From contig DAOVET010000047.1 of the NCBI GenBank assembly GCA_030668825.1, positions 1-18,290 of the forward strand: a DNA stretch of 18,290 bases, read 5' to 3'. Positions within the stretch are counted from its first letter, which is position 1. The number at the start of each line of letters is the position of its first letter. The notes beneath the pieces are model-generated. The model ran no database searches. It saw nothing but the letters and a program-made list of their open reading frames with translations, and was not told the origin of the DNA. Origin of the DNA: Candidatus Heimdallarchaeota archaeon. GTDB lineage: Archaea > Asgardarchaeota > Heimdallarchaeia > Heimdallarchaeales > Heimdallarchaeaceae. The translations under genes were made by a program, and so were the position numbers. This document shows positions 3,753-18,289 of this stretch, in pieces.

Positions 3753-3857
3753 TTTTGATGTATTAGTGTTGTTTGGGTATCAGTCTTGAATAAATATGCA
3801 TTAAAAACTGCAAAATAATTTCATTTGAGCACTAAGAGAACTATTGAGGAAAAATTA

Positions 3858-5174
3858 ATGAGCGAAAAAGATTCCCCAGAAAAGCAAGAAAGTACCCTCA
3901 CAGCTTCAAAAAATGAAGCGGTTAAGAAGGAAAAGAAAGTCATCAGACAGCCAGTGGTTAATATTGGAACTATAGGACATGTAGACAATGGTAAATCAAC
4001 TTTAGTCCAAGCTTTAACAGGTAAATTCCCTGATGATCACTCAGAGGAGCTCAAAAGAGGGATATCAATAAGATTAGGATATGCTGATACAGAATTTCGC
4101 AAGTGCCCTAAGTGTCCTGAGCCTGAAGCTTACACTATTGAAAAAACATGCCTAAAATGTGGAGCACCTTCTGAATTTTTACGAAGAGTTTCTTTTGTTG
4201 ATTGTCCCGGACACGAGGTTCTAATGGCAACATTGTTATCTGGAGCAACATTAATGAATGGAGCAATCCTTCTGATAGCTGCAAACTCAAGATGCCCACA
4301 ACCACAAACAAGAGAACATCTTGCAGCGATGGAGATTCTTCAAATACCAAATATAGTCGTTGTTCAGAATAAAATTGAACTTGTAAGTGAAGAAGAGGCT
4401 GAAAGAAATTATAAAGAAATTCAAGACTTTATTAAAGGAACAATTGCTGAAAACGCTCCAATAATACCAATGAGTGCAATGCATAAAGCAAATCTAGATG
4501 TTTTAATTTGTGAAATTGAAAAAAATATTCCTACACCAGATTTAGACATAGACAGCCCTCTGGAAATGCATGTTGCTAGATCTTTTGATATAAATAGACC
4601 TGGAACAAAAATCAATAAAATTAAGGGAGGAGCTCTTGGGGGAACAATAATCAAAGGGCAAATCAAAGTAGCTGAAGAAATAGAAATTGTACCCGGTTTA
4701 CCAGTCAAAAAGGCAAATAAAATAATTTACACACCAATTAGGACCAAAATTACTAGTATAGCAATAGGAGAGCAGGGTCTTGTTGAAAGCGCCCATTCTG
4801 GTGGTCTTGTTGCTATTGGGACAGAATTAGACCCTTCGTTTGTGAAGGCAGATAAAATGGCAGGTAATATTATTACCACTCCTGGTCATGCTCCTGAAAT
4901 CCTTTCAGAACTAAAATTAAAATTTCAGTTAATGGAATATGTAGTTGGCTCAGAAGAAATAACAAGGGTTCAACCATTAGCCCAAGGTGAGACTTTGATG
5001 TTAAATGTTGGAACTGCAAAAACTGCAGGAGTAATATCTGAAATTAAAGGGAAGGAAGCTTCTATAAAACTTAATCGTGAAGTAGCAGCAAGAGAACAAA
5101 GCAAAGTAGCTATCTCAAGAAGGATATCAGGTAGATTCCGTTTAATAGGAGTTGGTGAAGTTCTTAAGCAGTGA
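3858..5174 (+). CDS. eif2g: Translation initiation factor 2 subunit gamma (a/eIF2-gamma)
   Basis: NIGTIGHVDNGKST, EELKRGISIRLGYAD, zinc knuckle CPKC/CLKC, SFVDCPGHE, QPQTREH, QNKIE, RSFDINRPG and RLIG motifs. ATG 3858 has GAGGA upstream; the track start is TTG 3825. Confidence 0.97.
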   Translation: MSEKDSPEKQESTLTASKNEAVKKEKKVIRQPVVNIGTIGHVDNGKSTLVQALTGKFPDDHSEELKRGISIRLGYADTEFRKCPKCPEPEAYTIEKTCLKCGAPSEFLRRVSFVDCPGHEVLMATLLSGATLMNGAILLIAANSRCPQPQTREHLAAMEILQIPNIVVVQNKIELVSEEEAERNYKEIQDFIKGTIAENAPIIPMSAMHKANLDVLICEIEKNIPTPDLDIDSPLEMHVARSFDINRPGTKINKIKGGALGGTIIKGQIKVAEEIEIVPGLPVKKANKIIYTPIRTKITSIAIGEQGLVESAHSGGLVAIGTELDPSFVKADKMAGNIITTPGHAPEILSELKLKFQLMEYVVGSEEITRVQPLAQGETLMLNVGTAKTAGVISEIKGKEASIKLNREVAAREQSKVAISRRISGRFRLIGVGEVLKQ

Positions 5175-5180
5175 AATCAC

Positions 5181-5567
5181 ATGTTGATTATTATAGATTC
5201 TAGCATGTTAATGCTTCCTCTTGAAAAAAAGATAAACTTATCTTATGAGATAGAACGACTGGTGCAAATAAGTTTTGAAATTGTTGTACCACAAATTGTT
5301 TTGGATGAATTAAGGAGATTATCAGAAAAAGAAAGCCAGTCTATTAAGCTAAAGGCAAAACTAGCATTAGAATTAGCTAACGGGTTTTTAAAAATAGAAT
5401 CAAACACTAATTGCCATGCTGATGAAGAAATATTACGATTGGCAGTAGAAAAAGAAGCAATTGTTGCCACAAATGATACTAAGCTGCGTTTAAGACTACG
5501 GGAGAAGGGGATTGTTGTTATTTCTTTACGTGGGAAGAATAAGCTTTCTTTGTTCGGTGACATCTAG
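5181..5567 (+). CDS. PIN-domain ribonuclease, Fcf1/Utp24-like
   Basis: IIIDSS, VLDEL, ADEEIL and VATND acidic PIN motifs; its usual archaeal position directly after eIF2-gamma. Confidence 0.88.
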   Translation: MLIIIDSSMLMLPLEKKINLSYEIERLVQISFEIVVPQIVLDELRRLSEKESQSIKLKAKLALELANGFLKIESNTNCHADEEILRLAVEKEAIVATNDTKLRLRLREKGIVVISLRGKNKLSLFGDI

Positions 5568-5697: not shown

Positions 5698-6264
5698 ATG
5701 AAAATCGAAAGTTTATTTCCGGAAATTAAAGAAATTAAGAATGTCGATTTGCAGAATAAGGTTACAAAATCTCTTAAAAAAGCAATTCAACAAGGTGGAT
5801 GGAGCACACAAGACCTTCATAAAATTCCTTTCACACTGTTAATTCCCGACTTAGTCAATGAAGATCTTACAGTTAAAATATCAATTATAGATCATATTCG
5901 AGCTGTAACACAGATGTGTTTAGCCACTTATGAAAGATATGAGATGCTTGGTCTTGGAGATAAGTTGAATAGAGATGAGCTAATCGCAGGTGGATTACTG
6001 CACGACGTAGGAAAATTCATCGAGTATGAAAAAGACGAAACTGGACACATAATTCAGACAGCGGAAGGAAAATACATACGTCATCCTGCGATGGGTCTTG
6101 AATTAGTTTATGAGTATGATTTACCACTGATTGTTAGACAAGCTATTGTTTTTCACAGTAAAGAAGGAGATAAAATTCCTAGATTAAAAGAAGTAGAAAT
6201 TATCCATCGCTGTGATTTTCTTTGTTTTGCTCCAATAAAACAAATATTCGAAGAAAATAAATGA
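5698..6264 (+). CDS. HD-domain metal-dependent phosphohydrolase superfamily protein
   Basis: DHIRAV ... LLHDVGK ... RHP ... FHS ... HRCD (H..HD..H..H..D); GAGGT SD motif; first gene of the tricarboxylate cluster. Confidence 0.88.
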   Translation: MKIESLFPEIKEIKNVDLQNKVTKSLKKAIQQGGWSTQDLHKIPFTLLIPDLVNEDLTVKISIIDHIRAVTQMCLATYERYEMLGLGDKLNRDELIAGGLLHDVGKFIEYEKDETGHIIQTAEGKYIRHPAMGLELVYEYDLPLIVRQAIVFHSKEGDKIPRLKEVEIIHRCDFLCFAPIKQIFEENK

Positions 6265-6282
6265 GGAAAAGGTGTTCTTGAA

Positions 6283-7416
6283 ATGAAGAAATACAAAATT
6301 GCAGTTTTACCAGGTGATGGGGTTGGTGTTGATGTAACAGAAGCAGCAATGAAAGTTCTGGATGCTGTTGGATTCGGAGAAAAAGCTGAATACACATATG
6401 GAGATATAGGCTGGGAATTTTGGTGTAAGGAAGGAAATCCTTTACCAGACATAACAATTGAGCTTCTCAAGAATTCAGATTGTTCTTTGTTTTCAGCTAT
6501 CACATCAAAACCTAAGGAAGAAGCTGAAAAGGAATTAGTTCCAGAATTACAGGGTAAAGGATTAGTTTACTTTAGCCCTATTGTGAGATTACGACAACTG
6601 TTTGACCTTTATGTCAACTTACGTCCTTGTAAGGCTTACCCAGGCAATCCTCTTAATTACAGAGATGATATTGATTTGATTGTTTTTCGTGAAAATACTG
6701 AAGGACTTTATGTTGGAATAGAATGGCATCCTGTCCCTGAAGCAGTAATGAAAACAATTATTGAAAATCATCCCAAAGCAAAACGATTTGAAGAAGAGAA
6801 TCTTAATGATGTAGCCATATCTACTAGAATATTCACTCGAAAAGGAGTTCAACGTATTCTCAAGGCTAGTATGGATTATGCGAAGGAGTTTAACTACCCT
6901 ACTGTAACTGTTGTAGAAAAACCAAATGTTATCAGAGAAACAAGTGGTTTGATGGTACGAGAAGCAAGAAAACTAATACAGGATTATAACAATATGGAAT
7001 TATGGGAAACCAATATTGATGCAATGGCTATGTGGCTTGTAAAAAATCCTCAGAATTATGGTGTTTTAGTATCATCTAACATGTTTGGAGACATTGTTTC
7101 AGACCTAGCAGCTCAATTAATAGGTGGGCTAGGGTTTGCTTGTTCAGGAAATATAGGTGAAAACTTTGCTGTTTTTGAGCCAACACATGGATCTGCTCCC
7201 AAGTATGTGGGGATGAATAAAGTAAACCCAATTGCACAAATTCTTGCTGCAAAAATGATGTTGGATTGGCTAGGTGAAAAACACATGGCCAACAAGATTG
7301 AAGATGCAGTGGCAGCTGTAATTGTTGAAGGAAAATATCGCACTTATGATATGGGTGGAAATACAACAACTTCTGAAATGGCAGATGCCATTTGTGAAAA
7401 AATAAATGCCCTTTAA
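6283..7416 (+). CDS. Isocitrate/homoisocitrate/isopropylmalate dehydrogenase family protein, predicted NADP-preferring
   Basis: PGDGVG, LRQLFDLYVNLRP, RENTEGLY, EKPN, NIDA, NMFGDIVSD, FEPTHGSAPKY and RTYDMGG motifs. Confidence 0.93.
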   Translation: MKKYKIAVLPGDGVGVDVTEAAMKVLDAVGFGEKAEYTYGDIGWEFWCKEGNPLPDITIELLKNSDCSLFSAITSKPKEEAEKELVPELQGKGLVYFSPIVRLRQLFDLYVNLRPCKAYPGNPLNYRDDIDLIVFRENTEGLYVGIEWHPVPEAVMKTIIENHPKAKRFEEENLNDVAISTRIFTRKGVQRILKASMDYAKEFNYPTVTVVEKPNVIRETSGLMVREARKLIQDYNNMELWETNIDAMAMWLVKNPQNYGVLVSSNMFGDIVSDLAAQLIGGLGFACSGNIGENFAVFEPTHGSAPKYVGMNKVNPIAQILAAKMMLDWLGEKHMANKIEDAVAAVIVEGKYRTYDMGGNTTTSEMADAICEKINAL

Positions 7417-7417
7417 C

Positions 7418-7442
7418 TTATTTTTTCCTTCATTTTTTCTTA
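7418..7442 (+). terminator. T-rich tract after the dehydrogenase gene; possible internal terminator
   Basis: TTATTTTTTCCTTCATTTTTTCTT immediately after the TAA, in the largest gap inside the cluster. Confidence 0.35.
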
Positions 7443-7526
7443 TACCATTTTCTATGAAAATCAATACCCCATAAATACATAAGGATAATCTTATTACTTC
7501 TTTATTAATTGGTGAAACTGAGCGAA

Positions 7527-8795
7527 ATGACTAGCTTCACACTTATTGAAAAAATCATTAGAAATTGTACAGATGTTTCAGATAGTGAGATCTATCCAAA
7601 CAACATAGTATGGGTTAATCTTGATTTGGTTACGGCAAGAGATTATGCAGGACCTCAAGTCATAGATCTATTTCAAAAAAATTATACTGGTTCTAGAACA
7701 TTTAACAATGAAAAAATTATCTTTACTCCAGACTGTTATCCTTATGGCAATGATCCAAAGCATGCTAAAGATCAAGAAAAAATTCGTGTATTTGCCAAAG
7801 AACATGGAATCAAGGTTACTGATCTCGGATCAGGTATAGGTTCTCATCTATTGTTTCGAAGAGGTTTTTCAAAACCAGGAGATGTAGTTATTGGAGCTGA
7901 TAGTCATTATAATATTCTTGGAGCTTTAGGAATCTTAGGTCAAGGAGCAGGAGATGTCATGCTTGCTTTTGCCTTTAAAACAGGAAAATCATGGACAAAA
8001 ATTCCTGAAACTGTAAAAGTTATCTTAAAGGGAGATTATGAGTGGCCAACAACAGCAAAAGATTTAGCTCTTTATGTTCTTAAAGAACTTCATGAATATG
8101 GAATTACAGGGAAAGCTGTCGAATTCTATGGTGAAATTATTGACAAGTTATCAATTGAAGAAAGAGTGACTTTATGTTCTCTGATTACAGAAGCTTCAGG
8201 CGTTATTGGGTTTGTACCTGCTGATAAAATTACAGCTGATTATTACTCCGAGAGTGGAATCGAGATAGAAATGTTATCAGCCGATGAAGATGCAAGATAT
8301 GTCTCAGAATTAGTCTTAGATATTCAAGATTTAGGCCAATACATTGCATGTCCTCCACATCCACATAATGTCAAAAAAATTGAGGAAGTAATTGGTACTC
8401 CTATAAATTCTATTGTTATTGGTTCTTGTACAAATGGAAGTGCAGCAGATATTCATGATGCAGCAAAGATACTGAAGGGGCACAAAATCAATCCAAATGT
8501 GAGATTTGGAATAGTTCCTGCTACTAGGGAGGATTTTGTTTCAATCAATCTAAATGGTGATATGACAATAATTCTAGAAGCTGGTGGAAACTTTTTTGGT
8601 GCAGGCTGTTCAACCTGCGCGAATGGACAATATGGCTTAACTGGAGGGAAAACAGCTGTAACCCTAACAACAGGAAACAGAAACACTCAAGGCAAAATTG
8701 GTCCCGCGGATGTCTATTTAGCTAGTCCTGTTGTAGCAGCAGTTACAGCAATTAAAGGCAAAATTGCTTTACCTAAAGAGGTGATTAAGGAATGA
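7527..8795 (+). CDS. Aconitase-family (LeuC/HacA-type) large subunit with non-canonical active site
   Basis: GADSH, GSCTNG and GCSTC (three cluster Cys), TGNRN, YLASP. Start uncertain (TTG 7509, GTG 7512 or ATG 7527). Confidence 0.9.
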   Translation: MTSFTLIEKIIRNCTDVSDSEIYPNNIVWVNLDLVTARDYAGPQVIDLFQKNYTGSRTFNNEKIIFTPDCYPYGNDPKHAKDQEKIRVFAKEHGIKVTDLGSGIGSHLLFRRGFSKPGDVVIGADSHYNILGALGILGQGAGDVMLAFAFKTGKSWTKIPETVKVILKGDYEWPTTAKDLALYVLKELHEYGITGKAVEFYGEIIDKLSIEERVTLCSLITEASGVIGFVPADKITADYYSESGIEIEMLSADEDARYVSELVLDIQDLGQYIACPPHPHNVKKIEEVIGTPINSIVIGSCTNGSAADIHDAAKILKGHKINPNVRFGIVPATREDFVSINLNGDMTIILEAGGNFFGAGCSTCANGQYGLTGGKTAVTLTTGNRNTQGKIGPADVYLASPVVAAVTAIKGKIALPKEVIKE

Positions 8796-9298
8796 GTAAA
8801 GAAACAATCAAAGCTAAAGCAAAACTAGTCATAGTAGATGACGTTGATACTGATCAAATATTTCATCAATCCTTATTAACAATTCATGATCCCATTGAAA
8901 TAAAACCACATATTTTCGGTAATCTTGAAGGGTATAAGAGTTTTGGAAATGAAGACAATGTTGGGAAAATACTGTTGGTAGGCAAAAACTTCGGTAAAGG
9001 ATCAACAAGACAACAAGCTGTAACAGGATTTCTAGCTCATGAAATCAAAGCAATAATTGGTGAATCTTTTGGACCAATTTATTACAGTAATGCTGTAAAT
9101 TCAGGTTTACTCCTTGTAGAAGCACCTGGAATATCTGAATTCAAGGTTAAAGATGATGATAATCTAGAAATAGACATAACTCAATCAGTTATTATCAATC
9201 AGAATAATGGTGAGAGCATTAAATATGCTAAAATACCTCAACCAGTATGGGATATAATAAAAGCTGGTGGCCTTCTAAAACTTGGAGAAATAATGTAA
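8792..9298 (+). CDS. Aconitase-family (LeuD/HacB-type) small subunit, divergent
   Basis: DVDTDQI, GKNFGKGSTR, ESFGPIYYSNAVNSG, IIKAGGL; ATGA overlap with the large subunit. Confidence 0.9.
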   Translation: MSKETIKAKAKLVIVDDVDTDQIFHQSLLTIHDPIEIKPHIFGNLEGYKSFGNEDNVGKILLVGKNFGKGSTRQQAVTGFLAHEIKAIIGESFGPIYYSNAVNSGLLLVEAPGISEFKVKDDDNLEIDITQSVIINQNNGESIKYAKIPQPVWDIIKAGGLLKLGEIM

Positions 9299-9310
9299 AA
9301 AGTGGGAAAT

Positions 9311-11161
9311 ATGAGCAGGAAAACATTTTCAGAAAAACTTTTTTCGTTTAAGTCAAATATAGATGTGAAAGCTGGTGATATTGTTTATGCAGAACCTGAT
9401 TTAATTCTGTCACACGACAATTCAGCATCAATAGAAAAAACTTTTCAAAAAATGGGTGGAACAAAAATCAAATTCCCTGAACGTCTTGTAATTGTCTTGG
9501 ATCATGATTCCCCTCCAACGAGTGCCAAGATAGCAAATGATCACAAAAGTATAAGAGAATTAGTTAAAAGGCAGAATATCACTAATTTCTATGATGAGGG
9601 GAAGGGAATCTGCCACCAATTGATGTCCAACCATGCTTCACCTAATATGCTCATTGTTGGGTCAGATTCTCATACATGCACAAGTGGTGCATTTGCTACA
9701 TTTGCAGCAGGAATTGATAGAACAGAAACAGCAGGATTGTGGTTAACAGGAAAGACTTGGTTTAGAGTACCTGAAACAATTAAAATTGTGCTAAATGGAA
9801 AATTACCTTTGGGTGTTTATGCAAAGGATATTGCTTTATGGCTAATGAATAAATTAGGCGCCGCTGGAGCGACTTATTATGCGATTGAGTTTCATGGAAG
9901 GGGTGTAGAAACTTTATCTATATCTGAAAGAATGACACTAGCAAACCTAGCTTCAGAGATGGGTGCTAAAACAGCTATTTTTCCACCTGACAAAGTCTTA
10001 ATCAATTGGTTAAAAGAAAAACATTGTTCATCAGGAAGTCCACAAGAAAAACTATTCTGGTCAGACAAAGATGCAATTTTTAGCAGAGAAATCATTCTAG
10101 ATTTAAGCAAATTGGAACCTTTAGTTGCAGTTCCACACCAAGTAGATAATACACAGTTTGCCAAAAAACTGGAAGGAACCCCTATTCATCAAGCTTTTCT
10201 GGGAACTTGTACAAATGCCCGATTAGACGATTTAGAGATTGCTGCAAAAATAATCAAAGATAAAAAAGTGAAAGATGATGTAATATTTCTTGTAGCTCCA
10301 GCTTCTAATAAAATCTATCTTGAAGCATTAGAGAAGGGGGTTATTCAAACACTTGTTAAGGCAGGTGCAACAATACTTTCATGCAGTTGTGGTCCTTGCT
10401 TAGGCAAAGGACAAGGAATACCAGCAGACAATTGGAATGTTTTATCTACTGCAAACAGGAATTTTCTGGGAAGAATGGGAAATAAAAATGCACGTATATT
10501 TTTAGCATCTCCAGCTACTATAACAGCTTCTGCAATTGAAGGAAGGATTACAGATCCCAGAAAACATCTATCATCTAGAGCCTTAAGAGAAGAAACTGAA
10601 ATAGTGCTACAATATAGAGATGTAGAAACTAAAACCCTTGAAATAGACTCAAAAGACGATAGATTCAGCATGAATGTTTGGGATTACAGTGATGTTGATG
10701 ATTTCAATACAGATCAGATGTTTGCTGGAGGTCTTACCTACGATATTAAGTCTTCAGAGGGAGATAAAATAGTACCACATCTGTTCAAAGGTTTAGATGA
10801 AACATTTGCAGCTAGAGTTAAGGAGGGCGATATTATAATGGGTGGAGAAAATTTTGGATGTGGTTCATCAAGAGAACATCCAGCTGTTGGACTTGCAGCT
10901 GCAGGTGTGAAAGCTGTTATTGTAAAATCAGTATCTCGGATCTTTTATAGATCTGCAATTAACCAAGGATTACCAATCATTGTACATCAAGAGCTTATTG
11001 GTAAATTTGATAAAAAACAGCAAACAATAATTGACTTGGAAAAAGGTCAAATTACAAATGGAAGTCAAGTTTATTCTTTCCCAAAACTACCAAGCGAATT
11101 ATTAGAAATATTCACAGCTGGAGGACTTATCAAATATTATCAAAAACAATATTCAAACTAG
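9311..11161 (+). CDS. Fused large+small subunit aconitase/homoaconitase/isopropylmalate dehydratase family protein
   Basis: SHDN, LDH, GICHQ, GSDSHT, GTCTNAR, SCGPC, STANRNFLGRMG, then a LeuD domain (NTDQ, GENFGCGSSREH, RIFYRSAINQG, AGGL) in the same frame. Start GTG 9302 or ATG 9311. Confidence 0.93.
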   Translation: MSRKTFSEKLFSFKSNIDVKAGDIVYAEPDLILSHDNSASIEKTFQKMGGTKIKFPERLVIVLDHDSPPTSAKIANDHKSIRELVKRQNITNFYDEGKGICHQLMSNHASPNMLIVGSDSHTCTSGAFATFAAGIDRTETAGLWLTGKTWFRVPETIKIVLNGKLPLGVYAKDIALWLMNKLGAAGATYYAIEFHGRGVETLSISERMTLANLASEMGAKTAIFPPDKVLINWLKEKHCSSGSPQEKLFWSDKDAIFSREIILDLSKLEPLVAVPHQVDNTQFAKKLEGTPIHQAFLGTCTNARLDDLEIAAKIIKDKKVKDDVIFLVAPASNKIYLEALEKGVIQTLVKAGATILSCSCGPCLGKGQGIPADNWNVLSTANRNFLGRMGNKNARIFLASPATITASAIEGRITDPRKHLSSRALREETEIVLQYRDVETKTLEIDSKDDRFSMNVWDYSDVDDFNTDQMFAGGLTYDIKSSEGDKIVPHLFKGLDETFAARVKEGDIIMGGENFGCGSSREHPAVGLAAAGVKAVIVKSVSRIFYRSAINQGLPIIVHQELIGKFDKKQQTIIDLEKGQITNGSQVYSFPKLPSELLEIFTAGGLIKYYQKQYSN

Positions 11162-11171
11162 AGGGATAAAA

Positions 11172-12488
11172 ATGAGATTATATGAATATGAGGCAAAGCA
11201 GATTTTTGAGCAGTTTAACCTTAAAATTCCTAAACAAATAGCAATAATAGAAAGTGTTGAAGATTTAGTGGATATTTCTTTAGAATTTCCAATTATGGTT
11301 AAGGCCATGGTTTTGGTTGGAGGAAGGGGAAAAGCAGGAGGAATAAAGAAAGCTGAAACTATTGAGGAAACAGAGAGCATCATAAAGGAGATGTTGGGCT
11401 TAACAATTCATGGTTATCCCATAAAGAAAATTTTACTTGAGGAAGCTGTTGATATTGCTAGTGAAATCTACTTGTCCATAACCACCGACCCTGCAACTTT
11501 TGATATAGTATTGGTGACATCTGCAAGTGGTGGTGTTGATATTGAAGAAGTTGCCCAAACTAAACCAGATGAAATATGGAAGAAAGTACTAAGAAATAAT
11601 GATAAATCTTTGAATGCTGAAATAGGAAAAAAAGCTGCTGATTTTCTAGTAGACAAAAATCAAAATCTTCAACTAGTGAGAGAAAAACTTCAACAAACTA
11701 TTGAATCTCTCTATTTGGCTTTTCAGGATGCTGAAGCAAAAATTTGTGAAATAAACCCTCTAATTGTAACAAAGAACGGAGATATAATTGCTGCTGATGC
11801 GAAATTTGTACTTGATGATAATAGTTTGTACAGACAAACATCTTTGCTGAAATCAATTGGAATAGATCCTGGAAGTAAAAGGCATGATGTTTCAGAGCAA
11901 ACAGCTTTTGAAGCAAAAGCATATCAAATCGGCTTTCCGTTTATTGATTTACTCGAAAATCCAGAGAATTTTGTGAAAGATGAAGAGAAACTGTATGTAG
12001 GTCTTGTTCCAGGAGGAGCAGGGTACGGAATTTTTTCTGTAGATGAAATTGTTAATGTTGGAAACCGATATTTCAATGGTAAAGCAATTCCCATAAATTT
12101 CATGGATAGTGGTGGCGGTCCTTCAATAAGCAAGGTTGCAGATATGTTTCACCTTCTAATGGATCATCCCGCAACAGATCTAATCATAACTAGTCGTTTT
12201 GGAGGGATATCTAGTTGTGATGTCTTCATTCAAGGATTGGTTATGTCATTAAGAGATAGATTCATTGCTAAGAAAAGAATGATACCGATTTTCGGTCGAA
12301 TGGTTGGAACTGATTTAGCAGCTGCAAAAGCTTTTCTTGAGAAAGCTAAGCTAGAAACTCCAGAACCATTAATAGACCTACACATTGTTGTTGGAAATCA
12401 AAAGATAATGGCGGATGTCATTAAAGATGGAATTGAATATGGGTTTAAAGTGAAAAAACAAAGTGAGAACATTGAGGGTATTAAATGA
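11172..12488 (+). CDS. ATP-grasp acyl-CoA synthetase beta subunit (SucC/citryl-CoA-synthetase-like), partner of the downstream lyase fusion
   Basis: MRLYEYEAK, VKA..LVGGRGKAGGI, GGVDIEE, EINPL, DAKF..DDN, GGAG, NFMDSGGG and FGGI motifs. Confidence 0.88.
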   Translation: MRLYEYEAKQIFEQFNLKIPKQIAIIESVEDLVDISLEFPIMVKAMVLVGGRGKAGGIKKAETIEETESIIKEMLGLTIHGYPIKKILLEEAVDIASEIYLSITTDPATFDIVLVTSASGGVDIEEVAQTKPDEIWKKVLRNNDKSLNAEIGKKAADFLVDKNQNLQLVREKLQQTIESLYLAFQDAEAKICEINPLIVTKNGDIIAADAKFVLDDNSLYRQTSLLKSIGIDPGSKRHDVSEQTAFEAKAYQIGFPFIDLLENPENFVKDEEKLYVGLVPGGAGYGIFSVDEIVNVGNRYFNGKAIPINFMDSGGGPSISKVADMFHLLMDHPATDLIITSRFGGISSCDVFIQGLVMSLRDRFIAKKRMIPIFGRMVGTDLAAAKAFLEKAKLETPEPLIDLHIVVGNQKIMADVIKDGIEYGFKVKKQSENIEGIK

Positions 12489-14626
12489 CAACTGACAAAT
12501 TAGCTGTGGATCAAGGACTTCTTTATTATCTCATTAAACACATCCATCCAGAACTCGCTCAGAAAATATCCAAAAAGAAAACAATCGAAACAATGATTGT
12601 TGGATTAGGAAGACAGGGAACTCGACATGCACAACTTATGATGGAATATGGAACCAACGTTACATGTGGAGTAGCACCAGGCAAAGGTGGTACATTTGTT
12701 CATGAAACTATTCCTGTTTATGAATCTGCAGAGATAGCAAAACAAAAACACCCTGATATTGCTGTAGCAAGTATATGGAAGCATTATTCTTCTGCTAAAG
12801 ATGCAACAATTGAAGTTATTAAATCTGGAATTCCTATTGTTGTTCTAATTTCAGAATTTATTCCACTTAAGGATGTAAGAGACATTCTAGTTGAAGCTAG
12901 AAAACATAAAACAATCTTATTTGGTGGTAACACACCAGGAATAATATTTCCTCCCGAAGGAATAAAAGTGGGTATGCTTCCAGATATTTTTCAAGCGCAG
13001 AAAACTGATAATAAAGTTGGTCCCAAAGGTGTAACAATTTTATCACGAAGTGGAGCTATTCTATATCATTTATCTGATGCACTAGCTAGTGCAGGAATTG
13101 CTCAAAATGGAGTATTGGGGGTAGGAGGAGATGGAGCTATTGGTTCTCGTTTTGTAGACCTTGTATCAAGAATAATGCAATACGAGCACACAGATTTAGT
13201 TGTTATCGCTGGTGAAATTGGTGGAATGCAGGAAGAATTGCTAGCTCAAGATATGAAAGCAAATCCAGAAAAATATCCAAAACCTCTAGTAGCATTAATA
13301 TCAGGAGCCAATGCCCCCGAAGGAAAAACCATGGGGCATGCAGGAGCTGTAATTTCTCCTGGGCAAAGTTATGGTACTTATCAAACAAAGAAGGAATCCT
13401 TGGAAAAAGTAGGAGTAATAGTGGTGAACCATCAAAGAGATTTAATAGATGCTGTAAGCTCAAAATTAAATCGAACATATTTTGATATTGAGGAATATTA
13501 CTCAAAAATGCGTAAAAAATGGGATGCTAAACCACCAGTGAAGACTTGGGGGACTTTAGTAACTAATGTAATGCCAAATAATCTGATAATCCGAGGATAT
13601 CCTCTACAAGAAATTATAGCAAAGAAAGGATTTCTAGAAACGTCATATTTACTCATTAAAGGAGAATTCCCAGAAGAAGCTCAACTTAAAGAAATTGAGG
13701 ATACTGCAAAAAAAGCAATAAAACAAGAATTCACAGAGCTTAAATCGATTACCATAAGTTCAGACATATCTAAAACCCTTGGAACTTTGATGTTGGTCGA
13801 TAATAAGCTTGCAGATTTTGTAAGACTGAATTCTGAAGAAACAAAAATTGCAGCTTATACATTGGGAAGAGTCTTGAAGTATTTTGCATATATTTTAGGC
13901 AATTTAAATCAGCTTGAATCTTCTTCAGTTTCCGAAACATCATTCTCAGAGATGATGTATCTAGGATTGGTCAAAGAAAAAAAACCAGACACACTTAAAG
14001 TTAAACTGCTAGAAGCAATGATTACTGCTTGTGTAGATCACGGGATCACACCACCATCTGCTCAAGCAACAATAATCTTAGCGTCGACTAGAGCTAATTA
14101 TGAAGTAGCTGTAGCTGGTGGTTTACAAGCAATCACAGATGTTCATGGTGGTGCAGGACAAAGGGCAGCTAAATTCTTCTTATCAGTTGTTGAAAAAGCT
14201 GAAAAAGAAAAATTGGATCTCGATGAATCCACCTTCAATTTAATACGTGAAACAATCAAAACCGGTAAAAGAATTGAAGGTTTAGGTCACCGTATTCATA
14301 CACAAGATCCTAGAAGAGATGCGTTATGGGAACTTGCAGAAGATGCAGGATATGCAAGAAGTTGTGTTGATGTTTCAAAAATGATTAGTAATACCTTCCA
14401 CCGCGTGCGAGGAATGAACCTCCCAATTAACGTAGATGGTGTTATTGCGGCTATTACAGCTGACATGGGATTAGACCCAAAACTTGCAAAAGTCATTTTT
14501 GTATTTGGAAGAACAGCAGGACTGGCCGCACATTATTTTGAGGAAATTAATACTCAACCTCAGATGAGAAGGATTGCGTTTGATAAAGCTACTTACAAAG
14601 GACCACCAATTAGAGAAATCAAATAG
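12485..14626 (+). CDS. SucD-like CoA-ligase alpha subunit fused to a citryl-CoA lyase/citrate synthase domain (ATP-citrate-lyase alpha-like architecture)
   Basis: GVAPGKGG, GNTPG, SRSG, GVGGD, GEIGG and GKTMGHAGA (phospho-His). From about aa 355: W.T..IRGYP, DHGITPPS, HGGAG, GLGHRIH..DPR, PINVDG, GR.AG..AH. ATGA overlap with the beta subunit. Confidence 0.92.
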   Translation: MTTDKLAVDQGLLYYLIKHIHPELAQKISKKKTIETMIVGLGRQGTRHAQLMMEYGTNVTCGVAPGKGGTFVHETIPVYESAEIAKQKHPDIAVASIWKHYSSAKDATIEVIKSGIPIVVLISEFIPLKDVRDILVEARKHKTILFGGNTPGIIFPPEGIKVGMLPDIFQAQKTDNKVGPKGVTILSRSGAILYHLSDALASAGIAQNGVLGVGGDGAIGSRFVDLVSRIMQYEHTDLVVIAGEIGGMQEELLAQDMKANPEKYPKPLVALISGANAPEGKTMGHAGAVISPGQSYGTYQTKKESLEKVGVIVVNHQRDLIDAVSSKLNRTYFDIEEYYSKMRKKWDAKPPVKTWGTLVTNVMPNNLIIRGYPLQEIIAKKGFLETSYLLIKGEFPEEAQLKEIEDTAKKAIKQEFTELKSITISSDISKTLGTLMLVDNKLADFVRLNSEETKIAAYTLGRVLKYFAYILGNLNQLESSSVSETSFSEMMYLGLVKEKKPDTLKVKLLEAMITACVDHGITPPSAQATIILASTRANYEVAVAGGLQAITDVHGGAGQRAAKFFLSVVEKAEKEKLDLDESTFNLIRETIKTGKRIEGLGHRIHTQDPRRDALWELAEDAGYARSCVDVSKMISNTFHRVRGMNLPINVDGVIAAITADMGLDPKLAKVIFVFGRTAGLAAHYFEEINTQPQMRRIAFDKATYKGPPIREIK

Positions 14627-15875: not shown

Positions 15876-17282
15876 CTAATTAGATTGACTTTGTAATTTT
15901 GCCAAGTATCGCTTGTATCCATCTAGAGTGTCTTCAACTCTCAACATATGCCTTTCTGCTTTAATTCGTAGTTCTTGCCATTCCTCTTCATCAATTTTCT
16001 CCGAATTTAGAGCATGTTCTAATTGTTGGATTCTCTCTACGGCCTTTTGTCTTCGTGTTCCGAGGTGTTTGATAACATTCTCAATATCTTCGAATTGAAC
16101 AGGAGTTTTATCTGTTTCTCCAGCTTCTGCTTCAATAATTTTAGTTAATGCAGATTTCTCTTCTGTTTCGAAATCTTTTTCCTTGGATACATGTGCTATT
16201 GTTTCCTTTATCGAAGATACAAAATCAGCAGCTGTTTTGCTCTTCTGGGGTGTCGATAAAACTTTATTTAATCTAGATATAGAAGAACGAAATTCATGGA
16301 CTTCAGCAATTTCTTTCTTACTTAATCCTTCTTCACTTATCACGCTTTCTTCAATAGAGGGGGTGCTCGGAAGGGTAGTTTCTCCTTCTTCATCACTAAT
16401 TGATATTAATTTTTCTGTTAATGGAGAAATAATTGAATCATCTCCTGGATCCAAAGCAGATAACAAACCTGCTAACTCTTTCAAAGCTTCTTGTTCTGTT
16501 TCTATATTTTGCATAAAGGGTTCTTGCTCAAAATCATATTGGGAAGCAAGTTCAATGCCCTCAATCAGGTCTTTAGCATCATCCATCAAATCCTTTTCAG
16601 GTTGCTCAGTTATCTCTGAAATATCATCCAAAGGAGCAGAATCCACAGGTACAGAATCCAATTCAACTTCTTCAATAATTTCTTGTTCTTTAATTTCCTC
16701 GACTTCAGGCTTTTCTGTTTCAGCTTCAATCAGTTCTTCAAAAACTTGAACACCAGAATCGTCTTGGTTTTTTTCCTCGTTTACCTTTATAGGAATCTGT
16801 TTTGAAGGTTCAATTTCTGTAATCTGAATATTACTTCTTTGGAGCTGTAACAAGGCTGCTGTTTGTTGTTTCAGATTTTTTGTCTCTTCACGAATAGAAT
16901 TAATGTTAAGCTCTAACGTTTCAAGTTTTGCATTAATGAACTGTAATGTATCATTTTCAGTACCACTGAATCTATGATATTCTATTTGTAACATATTTGC
17001 ATATGTGATTACATTGTAAACTGTATCAATCATTTCAGGTAATTCTCTAAACCAAGGTCCTGCACTGTCGAACTTCAGAAGAATGTCCTTAGCGGTTGAA
17101 AAATGTTTTTCGTACTCTTTTTGTTGCTCTGGAGGTAAACAAGTTTTAACATATGAGGAAAGAGTGGCCAGATTTGTTATAAGATGTGTTTTAACATCCT
17201 CCTCTTCTTCTGGGTTGAACTTACCTTTTAGAACACCCCAAAACATCGTTTTAATTTCTTCAATTGCTTTCTCTAGGCTCAT
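15876..17282 (-). CDS. Hypothetical acidic protein with coiled coils
   Basis: 468-aa ORF: helical N-terminal domain, heptad-like stretch at about aa 115-150, long E/D-rich middle, C-terminal helical hairpin; 2-nt and 7-nt gaps to its neighbours. Confidence 0.8.
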   Translation of the reverse strand: MSLEKAIEEIKTMFWGVLKGKFNPEEEEDVKTHLITNLATLSSYVKTCLPPEQQKEYEKHFSTAKDILLKFDSAGPWFRELPEMIDTVYNVITYANMLQIEYHRFSGTENDTLQFINAKLETLELNINSIREETKNLKQQTAALLQLQRSNIQITEIEPSKQIPIKVNEEKNQDDSGVQVFEELIEAETEKPEVEEIKEQEIIEEVELDSVPVDSAPLDDISEITEQPEKDLMDDAKDLIEGIELASQYDFEQEPFMQNIETEQEALKELAGLLSALDPGDDSIISPLTEKLISISDEEGETTLPSTPSIEESVISEEGLSKKEIAEVHEFRSSISRLNKVLSTPQKSKTAADFVSSIKETIAHVSKEKDFETEEKSALTKIIEAEAGETDKTPVQFEDIENVIKHLGTRRQKAVERIQQLEHALNSEKIDEEEWQELRIKAERHMLRVEDTLDGYKRYLAKLQSQSN

Positions 17283-17284
17283 TT

Positions 17285-18289
17285 TTAAAACCCTAAATTA
17301 ATTGTTCTTCGTTTAGTGAAATCATGAGGTAATGAAGGCTCTAAATAAACTTTATCGATTTTTAAATCATCCTTCAGTTGAATAGTAACATCAAGTTTTT
17401 CTTTCGAATCAATGTTCCAGAAATATAGAGATGGCTTTATCCCTGATCGAGAATACTCACTTAATATAGAAAATGAACTTACCAGATGTTGATACTCAGG
17501 ACTTTTTTTAGCAGGAAAAGATTCACTCCATGGATTTACATGGATGATTATATTGTTTGTAATCTTTGCTAATTCTGTGATATTTTGACCAAAGAACTCA
17601 TTGGCTCCAGTAATAAAACCAGTTTCTTTATCAGCTTTTATTACAAAAGAAATATCGATGTTCTTTATGCTTTTCACAGTATCTGTAATTTCTTTTAATG
17701 TTTGATTAATGTAGGTAGACCTTTCATCATTCCAATTTCCCATCAAGTCTCTGGATTCAAGATATTCAAAACTGAAATCTCTTTCAATATTCCACTTGCT
17801 CGCAAATAATCTTCTGCATCTATCACAGAAACAAGTTCTTTTGCTTGCCAACATCAAATCGTCTAATACCAAACTTTCTATTGGGTAATGAGCTATTTCT
17901 GATGCTATAGCTGCTGAATATTTTACCAAATTTTCTTGGCTTGGACAAGAATATGAAGTAATAGTAGCCCCATCGCTACTACTTAGTTGAAAATCAGTGT
18001 TTTGAGAAAGAAAATTATCTCCATGAACATAAGTAACCGCATCCACTTTTATGCCCATATTGTCTGCAATTGTACAAAATGAATGAAAGAAGACACCGTT
18101 TGTTTTATCTTTTGGAGCACTATTGCTTTGGTAGAAAGTATAACCAGATCTTCCTTTTGCAACTAATGATATGGCATCCACCATATGTCCATAATGATCT
18201 AAAAAATCATCAGGATTTGTCTGAATGACTGTTGGATCAATAACCAATATCGCTCCGCTCTTTAGTATTTCCTGAAGTATATCTGACAC
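17285..18289 (-). CDS. Glycoside-hydrolase-like TIM-barrel protein (GHL10/DUF187-like); may be 5'-truncated
   Basis: SCPS..LVKY...IASEIA.YPIESLVLDD followed by CFCDRCRRLF resembles the 'CP..P...Y....E.....DG..lD' plus CxCxxC pattern of GHL/GH42-like barrels. The ORF begins at the window edge. Confidence 0.55.
   Translation of the reverse strand: MSDILQEILKSGAILVIDPTVIQTNPDDFLDHYGHMVDAISLVAKGRSGYTFYQSNSAPKDKTNGVFFHSFCTIADNMGIKVDAVTYVHGDNFLSQNTDFQLSSSDGATITSYSCPSQENLVKYSAAIASEIAHYPIESLVLDDLMLASKRTCFCDRCRRLFASKWNIERDFSFEYLESRDLMGNWNDERSTYINQTLKEITDTVKSIKNIDISFVIKADKETGFITGANEFFGQNITELAKITNNIIIHVNPWSESFPAKKSPEYQHLVSSFSILSEYSRSGIKPSLYFWNIDSKEKLDVTIQLKDDLKIDKVYLEPSLPHDFTKRRTINLGF

Follow-up and report, generated by a model that had tools for sequence, protein, structure and literature searches.

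The window analysed here is a stretch of 18,290 nucleotides that makes up one entire contig (C46; GenBank DAOVET010000047.1) of a metagenome-assembled genome (MAG; 2.76 Mb, 138 contigs, 90.6% complete) whose close relatives in the public record carry the label Candidatus Heimdallarchaeota. Between positions 5698 and 14626 it holds seven co-oriented open reading frames (ORFs) on the + strand. These probably form a module that interconverts citrate and 2-oxoglutarate through citryl-CoA synthetase plus citryl-CoA lyase (CCS/CCL) chemistry, i.e., of the ATP-citrate lyase (ACL) type, as the only citrate-forming or citrate-cleaving step of the organism. The proposal is built on gene content, conservation, joint loss of the genes, catalytic motifs and the absence of alternatives in the genome. 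The components, as delimited by the ORF list and by scans with Pfam and NCBIfam profiles, are the following:

5698..6264, + strand: HD-domain phosphohydrolase, 188 aa (HD, PF01966)
6283..7416, + strand: beta-decarboxylating dehydrogenase (377 aa) of the isocitrate/homoisocitrate/isopropylmalate family, whose cofactor loop is of the NADP type, called IDH below (Iso_dh, PF00180)
7417..7526, + strand: AT-rich spacer with T-runs from IDH to AcnL (seen in the sequence)
7509..8795, + strand, probable start ATG at 7527: AcnL, large subunit of a non-canonical hydro-lyase of the LeuC/aconitase family (Aconitase, PF00330)
8792..9298, + strand: AcnS, LeuD-type small subunit paired with AcnL (Aconitase_C, PF00694)
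9302..11161, + strand: AcnF, fused LeuC-LeuD (HacA/HacB-like) hydro-lyase, 619 aa (Aconitase plus Aconitase_C)
11172..12488, + strand: LigB, beta subunit (438 aa) of a SucC-like ATP-grasp ligase, analogous to CcsA/AclB (ATP-grasp_2, PF08442, and Ligase_CoA, PF00549)
12485..14626, + strand: LigA-CCL, SucD-like alpha subunit plus citryl-CoA-lyase-like domain, 713 aa (CoA_binding, PF02629; Ligase_CoA, PF00549; Citrate_synt, PF00285)

The seven genes and the ATGA overlaps at 8792 (AcnL/AcnS) and 12485 (LigB/LigA), already described in an initial annotation made from the sequence alone, are readily seen. The remaining junctions are short (HD/IDH 18 nt, AcnS/AcnF 3 nt, AcnF/LigB 10 nt), and the gap from IDH to AcnL measures 92 nt. 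In the module as we picture it, LigB and the SucD part of LigA would act as a ligase resembling succinyl-CoA synthetase (SCS), converting citrate, ATP and CoA reversibly into citryl-CoA, ADP and Pi via a phosphohistidine, and the fused domain of citrate-synthase fold would interconvert citryl-CoA with acetyl-CoA and oxaloacetate. The two hydro-lyases, both of the LeuCD family and with a predicted [4Fe-4S] cluster, would interconvert citrate, cis-aconitate and isocitrate, possibly with one half-reaction each, and the NADP-type dehydrogenase would link isocitrate to 2-oxoglutarate and CO2.

The type of chemistry is indicated by the last two genes. LigA-CCL is composed of a SucD-like part (approximately residues 1-330), in which the phosphohistidine loop GHAGA is present, and a lyase domain of about 364 aa (approximately residues 350-713). 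This is the make-up of an alpha-type ACL (CoA-binding, phosphohistidine CoA-ligase and citrate-synthase-homology domains), and the predicted architecture of the pair, a beta subunit followed by an alpha subunit fused to the lyase, is ACL-like. The closest solved chain to the lyase domain is the Hydrogenobacter CCL (6hxp, E of 1.4e-36; citrate synthases are at about 1e-16), and the HGGA, GHR and NVD motifs, aligned to the catalytic residues of citrate synthase, are all kept. Against the two NCBIfam citryl-CoA lyase subfamilies the protein falls just short of the cut-offs (212.1 vs. 245 and 205 vs. 212 bits), and a separate CCL of about 260 aa that reaches a curated score, absent from the window, was found at a bacterial locus (L101, see below). 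LigB and LigA are only 30% and 35% identical to the SucCD of the same genome and both stay under the SucCD equivalog cut-offs (LigB 245 vs. 370 for SucC). Since a separate SucCD, encoded on contig C20, does pass them (416 vs. 336 and 382.5 vs. 370), LigBA is a second, divergent ligase, and an SCS-like ligase paralogous to but distinct from the housekeeping enzyme is a feature of the CCS type. The domains and catalytic motifs of a ligase plus lyase, to which the initial annotation had assigned the carbon-carbon step, are thus present, and we infer that LigB/LigA-CCL may form acetyl-CoA and oxaloacetate in a reaction dependent on citrate, ATP and CoA, or run this reaction in reverse.

The fusion could also be taken as a sign of functional association only, with LigB/LigA a second succinyl-CoA (or other acid) synthetase and the fused domain a hydrolysing citrate synthase, which would give an ordinary oxidative branch without ATP coupling. 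The ligase parts are indeed closest to SCS, the Citrate_synt match covers model positions 13-353 of 357, including about 106 residues that CCL lacks and that align with citrate synthases, the NCBI name of the fusion is 'citrate/2-methylcitrate synthase', and a Thermoplasmata locus has a stand-alone homologue of the lyase domain with no ligase gene found beside it. However, the C-terminal 230 residues score 212 bits with CCL against 100 with citrate synthase (1.4e-36 vs. 1.7e-16), the genome already has a housekeeping SucCD, and in all lineages observed the lyase is either a neighbour of the ligase pair or fused to it, which holds also for the bacterial loci with a short CCL-type lyase. We regard this explanation as improbable, given that the domain scores as CCL-like and that the bacterial version has a short CCL.

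Citrate cleavage in the citrate branch of the reductive tricarboxylic acid (TCA) cycle is carried out by CCS/CCL in Hydrogenobacter and by ACL in Chlorobium. Like the module, Hydrogenobacter thermophilus has an SCS-like two-subunit ligase (CcsA/CcsB) beside a lyase of citrate-synthase fold, Ccl (6hxq, 6hxp), the latter being the best solved match of the Heimdall lyase domain. The differences are that the Heimdall alpha subunit and lyase are one protein of 713 aa, that the lyase is about 106 residues longer and that the ligase is nearer to SCS. With the ACLs of Chlorobium limicola (6hxj) and Methanothrix (AclB/AclA, 6hxi/6znw) and with eukaryotic ACLY the window has in common a beta subunit plus an alpha-lyase fusion, the gene order and the translational coupling. 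Yet the similarity is weak: 109 bits to AclA, 68-72 to M. concilii ACLY-B and 43 to Chlorobium AclB, this last match being restricted to the ATP-grasp part of LigB (residues 4-222). LigA-CCL is about 100 residues longer than AclA, and LigB does not have the beta-type make-up of ACL (ATP-grasp plus citrate-binding domain). Human ACL, like that of Chlorobium, is more distant from the ligase parts than SCS. Because the ACL-type citrate-binding domain is not matched, the ligase-lyase falls outside the AclAB family. Judged by scores and identities, the Heimdall SucD-lyase probably originated in a fusion event separate from that of ACL.

The two hydro-lyases are only about 30% identical to each other, in agreement with the initial annotation that had called them unlike. 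AcnF is the canonical one. It passes the subfamily cut-offs of PRK00402 (492.9 vs. 385), TIGR02086 and TIGR01343, it carries the LeuC/HacA motifs LSHD, LDH and NRNFLGR, and its closest solved chain is the large subunit of M. jannaschii homoaconitase (4kp2, 7e-105), with 427 bits to HacA_Meth, below the equivalog cut-off. AcnF is split into two genes in family f5 and in the bacterial loci. AcnL/AcnS has neither the LeuCD/HacAB subfamily score nor the canonical motifs. AcnL matches PF00330 with 223 bits but stays under all NCBIfam cut-offs (358 vs. 385), AcnS gives 54 bits with PF00694 and 98.6 with TIGR02087 (cut-off 108.95), and the closest solved relative of AcnL is the isopropylmalate/citramalate isomerase of M. 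jannaschii (4kp1, 7e-73). The three cysteine ligands of the cluster and a DSH motif are retained in AcnL. Where the M. jannaschii isopropylmalate isomerase and HacA read VHD or THD, D-H and NRNF.GR, AcnL reads ARD, D-C and NRN..GK; the altered positions are, we assume, those of Gln72, His101 and Arg452 of pig aconitase. Both hydro-lyases are very far from the curated AcnA, AcnB and mitochondrial aconitase models (86-132 bits for AcnL and 74-199 for AcnF vs. cut-offs of 686-1287).

The unusual signature of AcnL is kept in 29 of 29 orthologues from the loci and in 115 of 115 full-length relatives from databases, among them proteins labelled WOR-3, Aminicenantes and Thermoplasmata. At the D-H position these 115 proteins have DC (83), DL (27), DV (3) or DT (2), and the basic Arg and Lys are present in all of them. 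The AcnL-type proteins thus appear as a large uncharacterised subfamily that has lost the canonical His, a placement based on scores and identities. Its signature can be written ARD[FY][GA]G, TFD[CLVT] and NRN..GK, with no His at the LeuC/HacA D-H position, and its members (P0126-P0245; L003-L150) come from Asgard archaea and Thermoplasmata as well as from several phyla of uncultured bacteria. A precedent for two aconitase-family enzymes sharing one isomerisation is reported (PMC3556520) for the aminoadipate pathway of fungi and Thermus. That precedent concerns the homocitrate series, and a comparable split between AcnL/AcnS and AcnF is a hypothesis. Searches of the literature returned nothing on the subfamily without the His or on its pairing with a canonical LeuCD-type enzyme.

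The dehydrogenase belongs to the Iso_dh family (PF00180, 296.7 bits) and is under every NCBIfam cut-off, the best model being AksF2 (322 vs. 540); NADP-IDH equivalog models give only 150-188 against cut-offs of 484-585. Its closest solved chain is the homoisocitrate dehydrogenase (HICDH) of Thermus (3asj, 7e-66). Its cofactor loop, HGSAPKY, is that of the Thermus IDH chain 2d1c (HGSAPKYAG), whereas HICDH and an NAD-IDH read HGSAPDIA at this site, with DI for KY. From work on E. coli IDH the KY pair is taken as a marker of NADP use, and the loop supports the NADP type suggested by the initial annotation. HGSAPKY and the substrate loop Y-x-S-P-I-V-[RKG]-[LM]-R-Q are kept in 68 of 69 aligned dehydrogenases (that of the window counted), the lone exception being a LeuB/AksF-like gene of another family with HGSAPDIAG. 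By these loops the module dehydrogenases are a subfamily of their own. The Ser of the substrate loop aligns with what we take to be Ser113 of E. coli IDH, and Val is found where Thermus HICDH has Arg85. Substrate specificity is not readable from these motifs.

These relationships bring up a different substrate series, also offered by the initial annotation. The ligase-lyase could act on homocitrate/homocitryl-CoA, with AcnF as homoaconitase and the dehydrogenase as HICDH, so that 2-oxoglutarate and 2-oxoadipate would be linked with ATP coupling, possibly alongside a citrate route, which would account for there being two hydro-lyases. The best scores of AcnF (HacA_Meth and 4kp2) and of the dehydrogenase (AksF2 and Thermus HICDH) point that way, and two hydro-lyases with one dehydrogenase would suit two rounds of elongation. 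However, none of these scores reaches an equivalog cut-off, the cofactor loop differs from the one in HICDH, and the CCL of the bacterial counterpart passes citryl-CoA lyase cut-offs. To our knowledge, no enzyme of citrate-synthase fold uses 2-oxoglutarate. The characterised methanogen HacAB and AksF and Thermus HICDH therefore differ from the module, of which they are the best-scoring relatives for AcnF and the dehydrogenase, in the unreached cut-offs, in the loop (KY, not DI) and in their setting, as the Heimdall genome has neither a homocitrate synthase nor a use for 2-oxoadipate. LysX and HMGL-like genes are missing from it, which leaves no aminoadipate-lysine pathway to consume or supply 2-oxoadipate. 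Moreover, the genome is otherwise without a route to make or split citrate even though the rest of the cycle is present. Altogether we consider a homocitrate function quite unlikely, and as the principal role of the module homocitrate/aminoadipate metabolism was rejected, LysX, HMGL-like and DapB not having been found; of the (homo)citrate pathway first suggested, the conserved unit, the lack of a condensing synthase, the ligase-plus-lyase nature of the carbon-carbon step and the NADP-type loop are supported.

In the 90.6% complete genome no HMGL-like gene (LeuA, homocitrate or citramalate synthase), no Citrate_synt domain beyond the fused one and no further gene of the aconitase or Iso_dh families outside the module were found, which bears out the claim that a condensing synthase is lacking; IlvD, DapB, LysX, Ldh_1_N and PYC_OADA were not found either. 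The genome does contain SucCD, a KorA-type gene and three further 2-oxoacid:ferredoxin oxidoreductase alpha genes, SdhAB, a class I fumarase, a GTP-dependent phosphoenolpyruvate carboxykinase (PEPCK), two glutamate dehydrogenase (GDH) genes and an Ldh_2-type malate dehydrogenase (MDH) candidate. The picture is the same across the family: HMGL-like genes are absent from all 31 genomes, and in 26 of them the sole Citrate_synt domain belongs to an ORF of some 713 aa, one being cut to 406 aa by a contig end. Given these family-wide absences, with the rest of the cycle present, the cluster is the only means to make or split citrate and to link it with 2-oxoglutarate. The ligase-lyase would thus close a TCA cycle otherwise run by the KorA-type oxidoreductase, SucCD, SdhAB, fumarase, the Ldh_2-type MDH candidate and PEPCK.

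The organism appears to be incapable of synthesising Leu, Ile and Lys, and so these pathways are not the purpose of the cluster. The absence of IlvD, DapB and LysX leaves the Leu/Ile and the aminoadipate-lysine possibilities without a downstream pathway. An elongation of 2-oxoacids of the Leu/Ile type (citramalate/isopropylmalate), with the ligase-lyase as an unusual condensing enzyme, would find some backing in the automatic LeuC/LeuD/LeuB-like names and in the proximity of AcnL to 4kp1. Yet a LeuA-family gene is missing from the genome and from the 31 of the family, and IlvD from the genome, so the cluster is not leuBCD; in addition, the dehydrogenase has an NADP-type loop with the conserved substrate-loop Ser and the bacterial lyase is of CCL type. 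The leucine/isoleucine role was rejected for want of LeuA-family and IlvD genes and has hardly any probability left. The missing partner pathways weaken this alternative and the homocitrate one alike.

The first gene encodes a well-defined HD-domain protein (40.1 bits to PF01966, cut-off 22). H66, H102-D103, H129, H153 and D173, a full set of metal ligands, are invariant across 13 orthologues. Its structure is predicted with a pLDDT (predicted local distance difference test score) of 93, and the fold matches are generic (the HD domain of YhaM is the best, E of 7e-5, followed by HDDC2, YfbR and PgpH); the PDB gave no sequence match. Look-ups in the ESM Atlas likewise returned generic clusters, 'HD domain' and 'isopropylmalate dehydratase large subunit'. 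The gene adjoins the hydro-lyases or IDH in Heimdall family f1, in family f20 and in the bacterial loci, and the protein may be an accessory phosphohydrolase with a putative role in the module.

Conservation among archaeal relatives is what makes a chance assemblage hard to sustain. A search with the fusion protein gave 29 loci, and at 24 of these all seven genes occur together in the same order. Two more end at the contig edge and show whichever genes of the module fit, and the other three are more distant (a stand-alone lyase-like gene in Thermoplasmata, SucCD in Armatimonadota and a Thermoplasmatales fragment with an AcnL-type hydro-lyase gene directly after that of the fusion). At L016, L018, L021, L043 and L044 (the last two additional to the 29) the flanks differ and the seven genes are still together. 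Of 301 genomes sampled from the phylum, 42 match the fusion strongly (E no higher than 1e-100), four of the matches being partial; these belong to the family of the window (24 of 29 genomes) and to families f2 (2), f20 (2), f5 (10) and f6 (4). Four genomes of the family with neither the fusion nor any hint of it also have no Iso_dh and no aconitase, so the module is present or absent as a block. They are G026 and G074 (single contigs), G220 and G080, which gave no match to the fusion, Iso_dh, Aconitase, citrate synthase or HMGL-like families and thus appear to have no citrate arm of any kind. LigB is always a direct neighbour of LigA. In f20 IDH, LigB and LigA are adjacent, with HD-AcnL-AcnS located 1.6 kb away. 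An AcnL/AcnS pair back to back with a split AcnF-type pair is found in f5 and f6.

Some other archaeal sequences are worth recording. The stand-alone homologue mentioned above (L026, 4523-5587) is a 355-aa protein of a Thermoplasmata MAG with 51% identity to the lyase domain, in an 11-kb locus with no ligase gene. In f11, 44 of 76 genomes match Citrate_synt with an E value of at most 1e-20; the frames listed are mostly of about 330-380 aa, with values from 1e-51 to 1e-71 and a position between true citrate synthase and CCL. At five f11 loci (L151-L155) the protein is 21-27% identical to the fusion domain and there are no ligase or module genes nearby. A 6.5-kb contig labelled Bathyarchaeia (L031) carries IDH-AcnL-AcnS-AcnF-LigB-LigA with 69-81% identity to the window; mis-binning of a Heimdall contig is a likelier explanation than transfer.

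The most informative result comes from distant loci, in which a form of the module is found in bacteria. Metagenome contigs were scanned with an AcnL-type alignment, yielding 80 loci; the four close ones (L071-L074) were left out and 76 distant loci (L075-L150, AcnL 39-46% identical), many of them short, were analysed. Around AcnL we found AcnS in 61 of the 76 loci, IDH in 45, AcnF-type genes in 29, HD in 24, SucD-like or CCL genes in 23 and LigB-like genes in 15, so that IDH is the commonest neighbour other than the partner AcnS. All nine unfused genes are present in 12 of the loci, in two orders. Order A is CcsA-like, CcsB-like, CCL, HD, AcnF-large, AcnF-small, IDH, AcnL, AcnS; order B, which comes from high-GC bacteria, is CcsA-like, CcsB-like, CCL, HD, AcnL, AcnS, AcnF-large, AcnF-small, IDH. 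When only the 16 loci with at least 7 kb upstream and at least 5 kb downstream are considered, the nine genes are complete in six. Ligase and lyase are lacking from a locus that has HD, both hydro-lyases and IDH, another has AcnL and AcnS plus an oppositely oriented HD gene, a third shows just IDH and AcnL, and the remaining seven show AcnL with or without AcnS and nothing else of the module. With the genes together in at least three lineages, the conserved unit announced by the initial annotation withstood the neighbourhood comparison that could have dissolved it.

The frequency of IDH beside AcnL bears on another possible substrate. In a route through 2-methylcitrate or another substituted citrate (propionyl-CoA or other acyl-CoA plus oxaloacetate) the hydro-lyases would be AcnD-like and AcnB-like. 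The methylcitrate cycle does employ two different aconitase-family enzymes, and 2-methylcitrate synthases of the citrate synthase family are among the weaker matches. That cycle, however, ends in a lyase and not in a beta-decarboxylating dehydrogenase, and the AcnD and AcnB models score very low, which makes this a very unlikely solution.

The best documented bacterial locus is L101, in which TsaB and RimI adjoin the module and whose proteins are labelled Aminicenantes in the protein collection. Its CCL (259 aa) passes the cut-offs of two NCBIfam citryl-CoA lyase subfamilies (277.7 vs. 212 and 252.9 vs. 245) and aligns end to end with the characterised CCL of Hydrogenobacter (203 bits). Clustering of the neighbours gave mostly antisense ORFs, plus two gene families downstream of AcnS (TsaB and RimI by the annotation of L101), and no other conserved neighbours such as transporters or regulators were found in L033, L063, L066, L101, L119 and L150. 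In L116 all nine genes of the module are represented, but IDH is broken into two ORFs that overlap (6844-7793), possibly because of a frameshift or an assembly error.

Comparison of the archaeal and bacterial versions gene by gene gives two different pictures. For the hydro-lyases, IDH and HD, the identities show the window's proteins to be clearly orthologous to the bacterial counterparts (AcnL 39-46%, AcnF 47-53%, IDH 59-68%, HD 30-42%). LigB, on the other hand, is 26-29% identical to the bacterial CcsA-like protein versus 30% to its own SucC, the SucD part is 33-36% identical to the bacterial protein versus 35% to its own SucD, and the lyase part shows 33-39%. This equidistance suggests that the citrate-splitting component may have been assembled separately in the archaeal lineage.

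A number of observations weigh against a citrate-specific and strictly conserved module, and we put them together here. LigB has no match to citrate-binding families (Citrate_synth_N 48.6 vs. a cut-off of 83), and among solved chains it is nearer to the SCS beta subunit (3ufx_B, 176 bits) than to Hydrogenobacter CcsA (81) or Chlorobium AclB; the bacterial CcsA-like protein is also nearer to SCS beta. The hydro-lyases and the dehydrogenase score best on HacA, AksF2 and Thermus HICDH models, not on those of aconitase or IDH. AcnF alone of the seven proteins reaches any curated NCBIfam family cut-off; the six others sit between known families. We know of no LeuCD-type enzyme that acts as a full aconitase, and the dehydrogenase has Ile at the position that we take to be Asn115 of E. 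coli IDH. The LigB-LigA pair has no other module genes beside it in f5 and f6, and AcnL-type genes are present in 16 of 21 f5 genomes compared with 10 of 21 for the fusion, which leaves a strict co-occurrence of the two unsupported in both families. Many f2, f5 and f6 genomes hold both a normal citrate synthase and the fusion, so that a simple phylum-wide replacement of the former by the latter is not supported. Finally, at least 29 of the 76 distant loci have a common gene family downstream of AcnS, equated with the TsaB of L101. These loci thus probably belong to a single clade, which brings the number of independent lineages or arrangements to about three to five (Heimdall f1 and f20, orders A and B, and the Thermoplasmatales fragment), not dozens.

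Taking both sides together we still favour a citrate/2-oxoglutarate module, the substrates being presumably those named above. In which direction it would run is about an even choice between ATP-yielding synthesis of citrate and its ATP-spending cleavage. In a reductive mode amino acids would be converted to 2-oxoglutarate via GDH, carboxylation and ATP-dependent cleavage would give acetyl-CoA and oxaloacetate, and the latter would go to phosphoenolpyruvate by PEPCK. In an oxidative mode the cycle would run with the ligase conserving ATP. In the citric acid cycle of Desulfobacter postgatei ACL is reportedly the sole citrate-forming step and conserves one ATP, which could be a model for a Heimdall family that lacks citrate synthase. 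Operation of ACL in the ATP-forming direction is reported by Moller et al. (1987; cited in PMC9768450). A bolder and, taken as a whole, rather unlikely scenario would be a citrate arm free of citrate synthase in energy-starved anaerobes, with CCS/CCL run in reverse to save ATP, an aconitase made of two enzymes with a His-less partner, an obligatory HD partner and a Heimdall fusion that converged independently on the architecture of ACL.

How much of this is new has to be considered with caution. The pathway had been put forward as undescribed. With citrate as substrate its chemistry is that of the citrate branch of the reductive TCA cycle and, run backwards, that of the Desulfobacter postgatei cycle, so this part of the claim has to be withdrawn. 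Homologues of ACL in Asgard archaea are already in print (bioRxiv 10.1101/2022.10.25.513756, PMC11976288 and bioRxiv 10.1101/385732), and a survey of archaeal fusions reads, in the relevant passage, SucD-citrate-synthase fusions as ACL (PMC11237513). In Leptospirillum ferriphilum the citrate-cleaving genes are, according to passages of PMC2607301, co-transcribed with aconitase in reductive TCA cluster 1 (ccsA, ccsB, acnA, ccl, frdAB, sucCD). That cluster has a classical AcnA and neither IDH nor HD, in contrast to the two LeuCD-type hydro-lyases, IDH and HD of the Heimdall module. Literature searches gave no description of a conserved module of CCS/CCL, HD, two hydro-lyases and IDH or of the HD partner, although these Heimdall proteins may already figure as ACL in PMC11976288 (Supplementary Fig. 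28) and in bioRxiv 10.1101/2022.10.25.513756 (Supplemental Table 1). A link of CCS/CCL to Aminicenantes was not found either; the passages of two papers that hold both terms make none. The module is real, conserved, mis-annotated and only partly new, its chemistry being most likely the known ACL or CCS/CCL route, and the novelty is narrower: a conserved module of nine genes (in Heimdall seven, by fusion), a hydro-lyase subfamily with non-canonical motifs and the association with an HD protein.

In the rest of the window, upstream of the module are conserved archaeal housekeeping genes (S24e, DUF359, Rpb7-like, aIF2-gamma and a PIN_9 protein) and downstream a Taw2/Trm5-like tRNA methyltransferase. 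The aIF2-gamma ORF (3825-5174) is listed with a TTG start, and since the family match begins about 40 codons later its true start is probably downstream. It is followed by the PIN_9 protein (5181-5567), and most relatives have this pair and the genes for S24e, DUF359 and the Rpb7-like protein at the side of the module, too. Two ORFs on the - strand, 15876-17282 (468 aa) and 17285-18289 (334 aa), have no Pfam match and are conserved beside the module in relatives with 59-97% identity. The spacer at 7417-7526, with two T-runs and a TATA-like stretch, may split the cluster into two transcription units, HD-IDH and AcnL to LigA, and is possibly an internal terminator plus promoter. Three runs labelled 'RNA-Seq', probably of DNA, contain short low-depth contigs of the window and are uninformative on expression or operon structure. 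Scans of the window for tRNAs and Rfam families gave no match.

The way in which these genes are named matters beyond this contig, as metabolic reconstructions of Asgard archaea feed the models of the origin of eukaryotes, and in them the TCA cycle is usually scored by citrate synthase, AcnA/B and classical IDH. The Heimdall family has none of the three, its citrate arm being carried by proteins named as SucD, citrate synthase, LeuC/LeuD and LeuB. The automatic names are indeed those that had been anticipated ('succinyl-CoA synthetase alpha subunit', 'citrate/2-methylcitrate synthase', 'isopropylmalate dehydratase', 'homoaconitate hydratase family'), and pipelines that use such names would call the cycle incomplete or assign the genes to leucine synthesis. 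For enzymology the module raises the questions of which way the citrate step runs and how it is coupled to ATP, of an aconitase made of two LeuCD-type enzymes, one of them without the His, and of the role of the HD protein. A second, apparently independent SucD-lyase fusion would also bear on the evolution of ACL and citrate synthase. That Aminicenantes-like bacteria and further uncultured anaerobes share the module points to a widespread variant of central metabolism and, if true, the citrate arm free of citrate synthase would include the Heimdall relatives of the eukaryotic host lineage.

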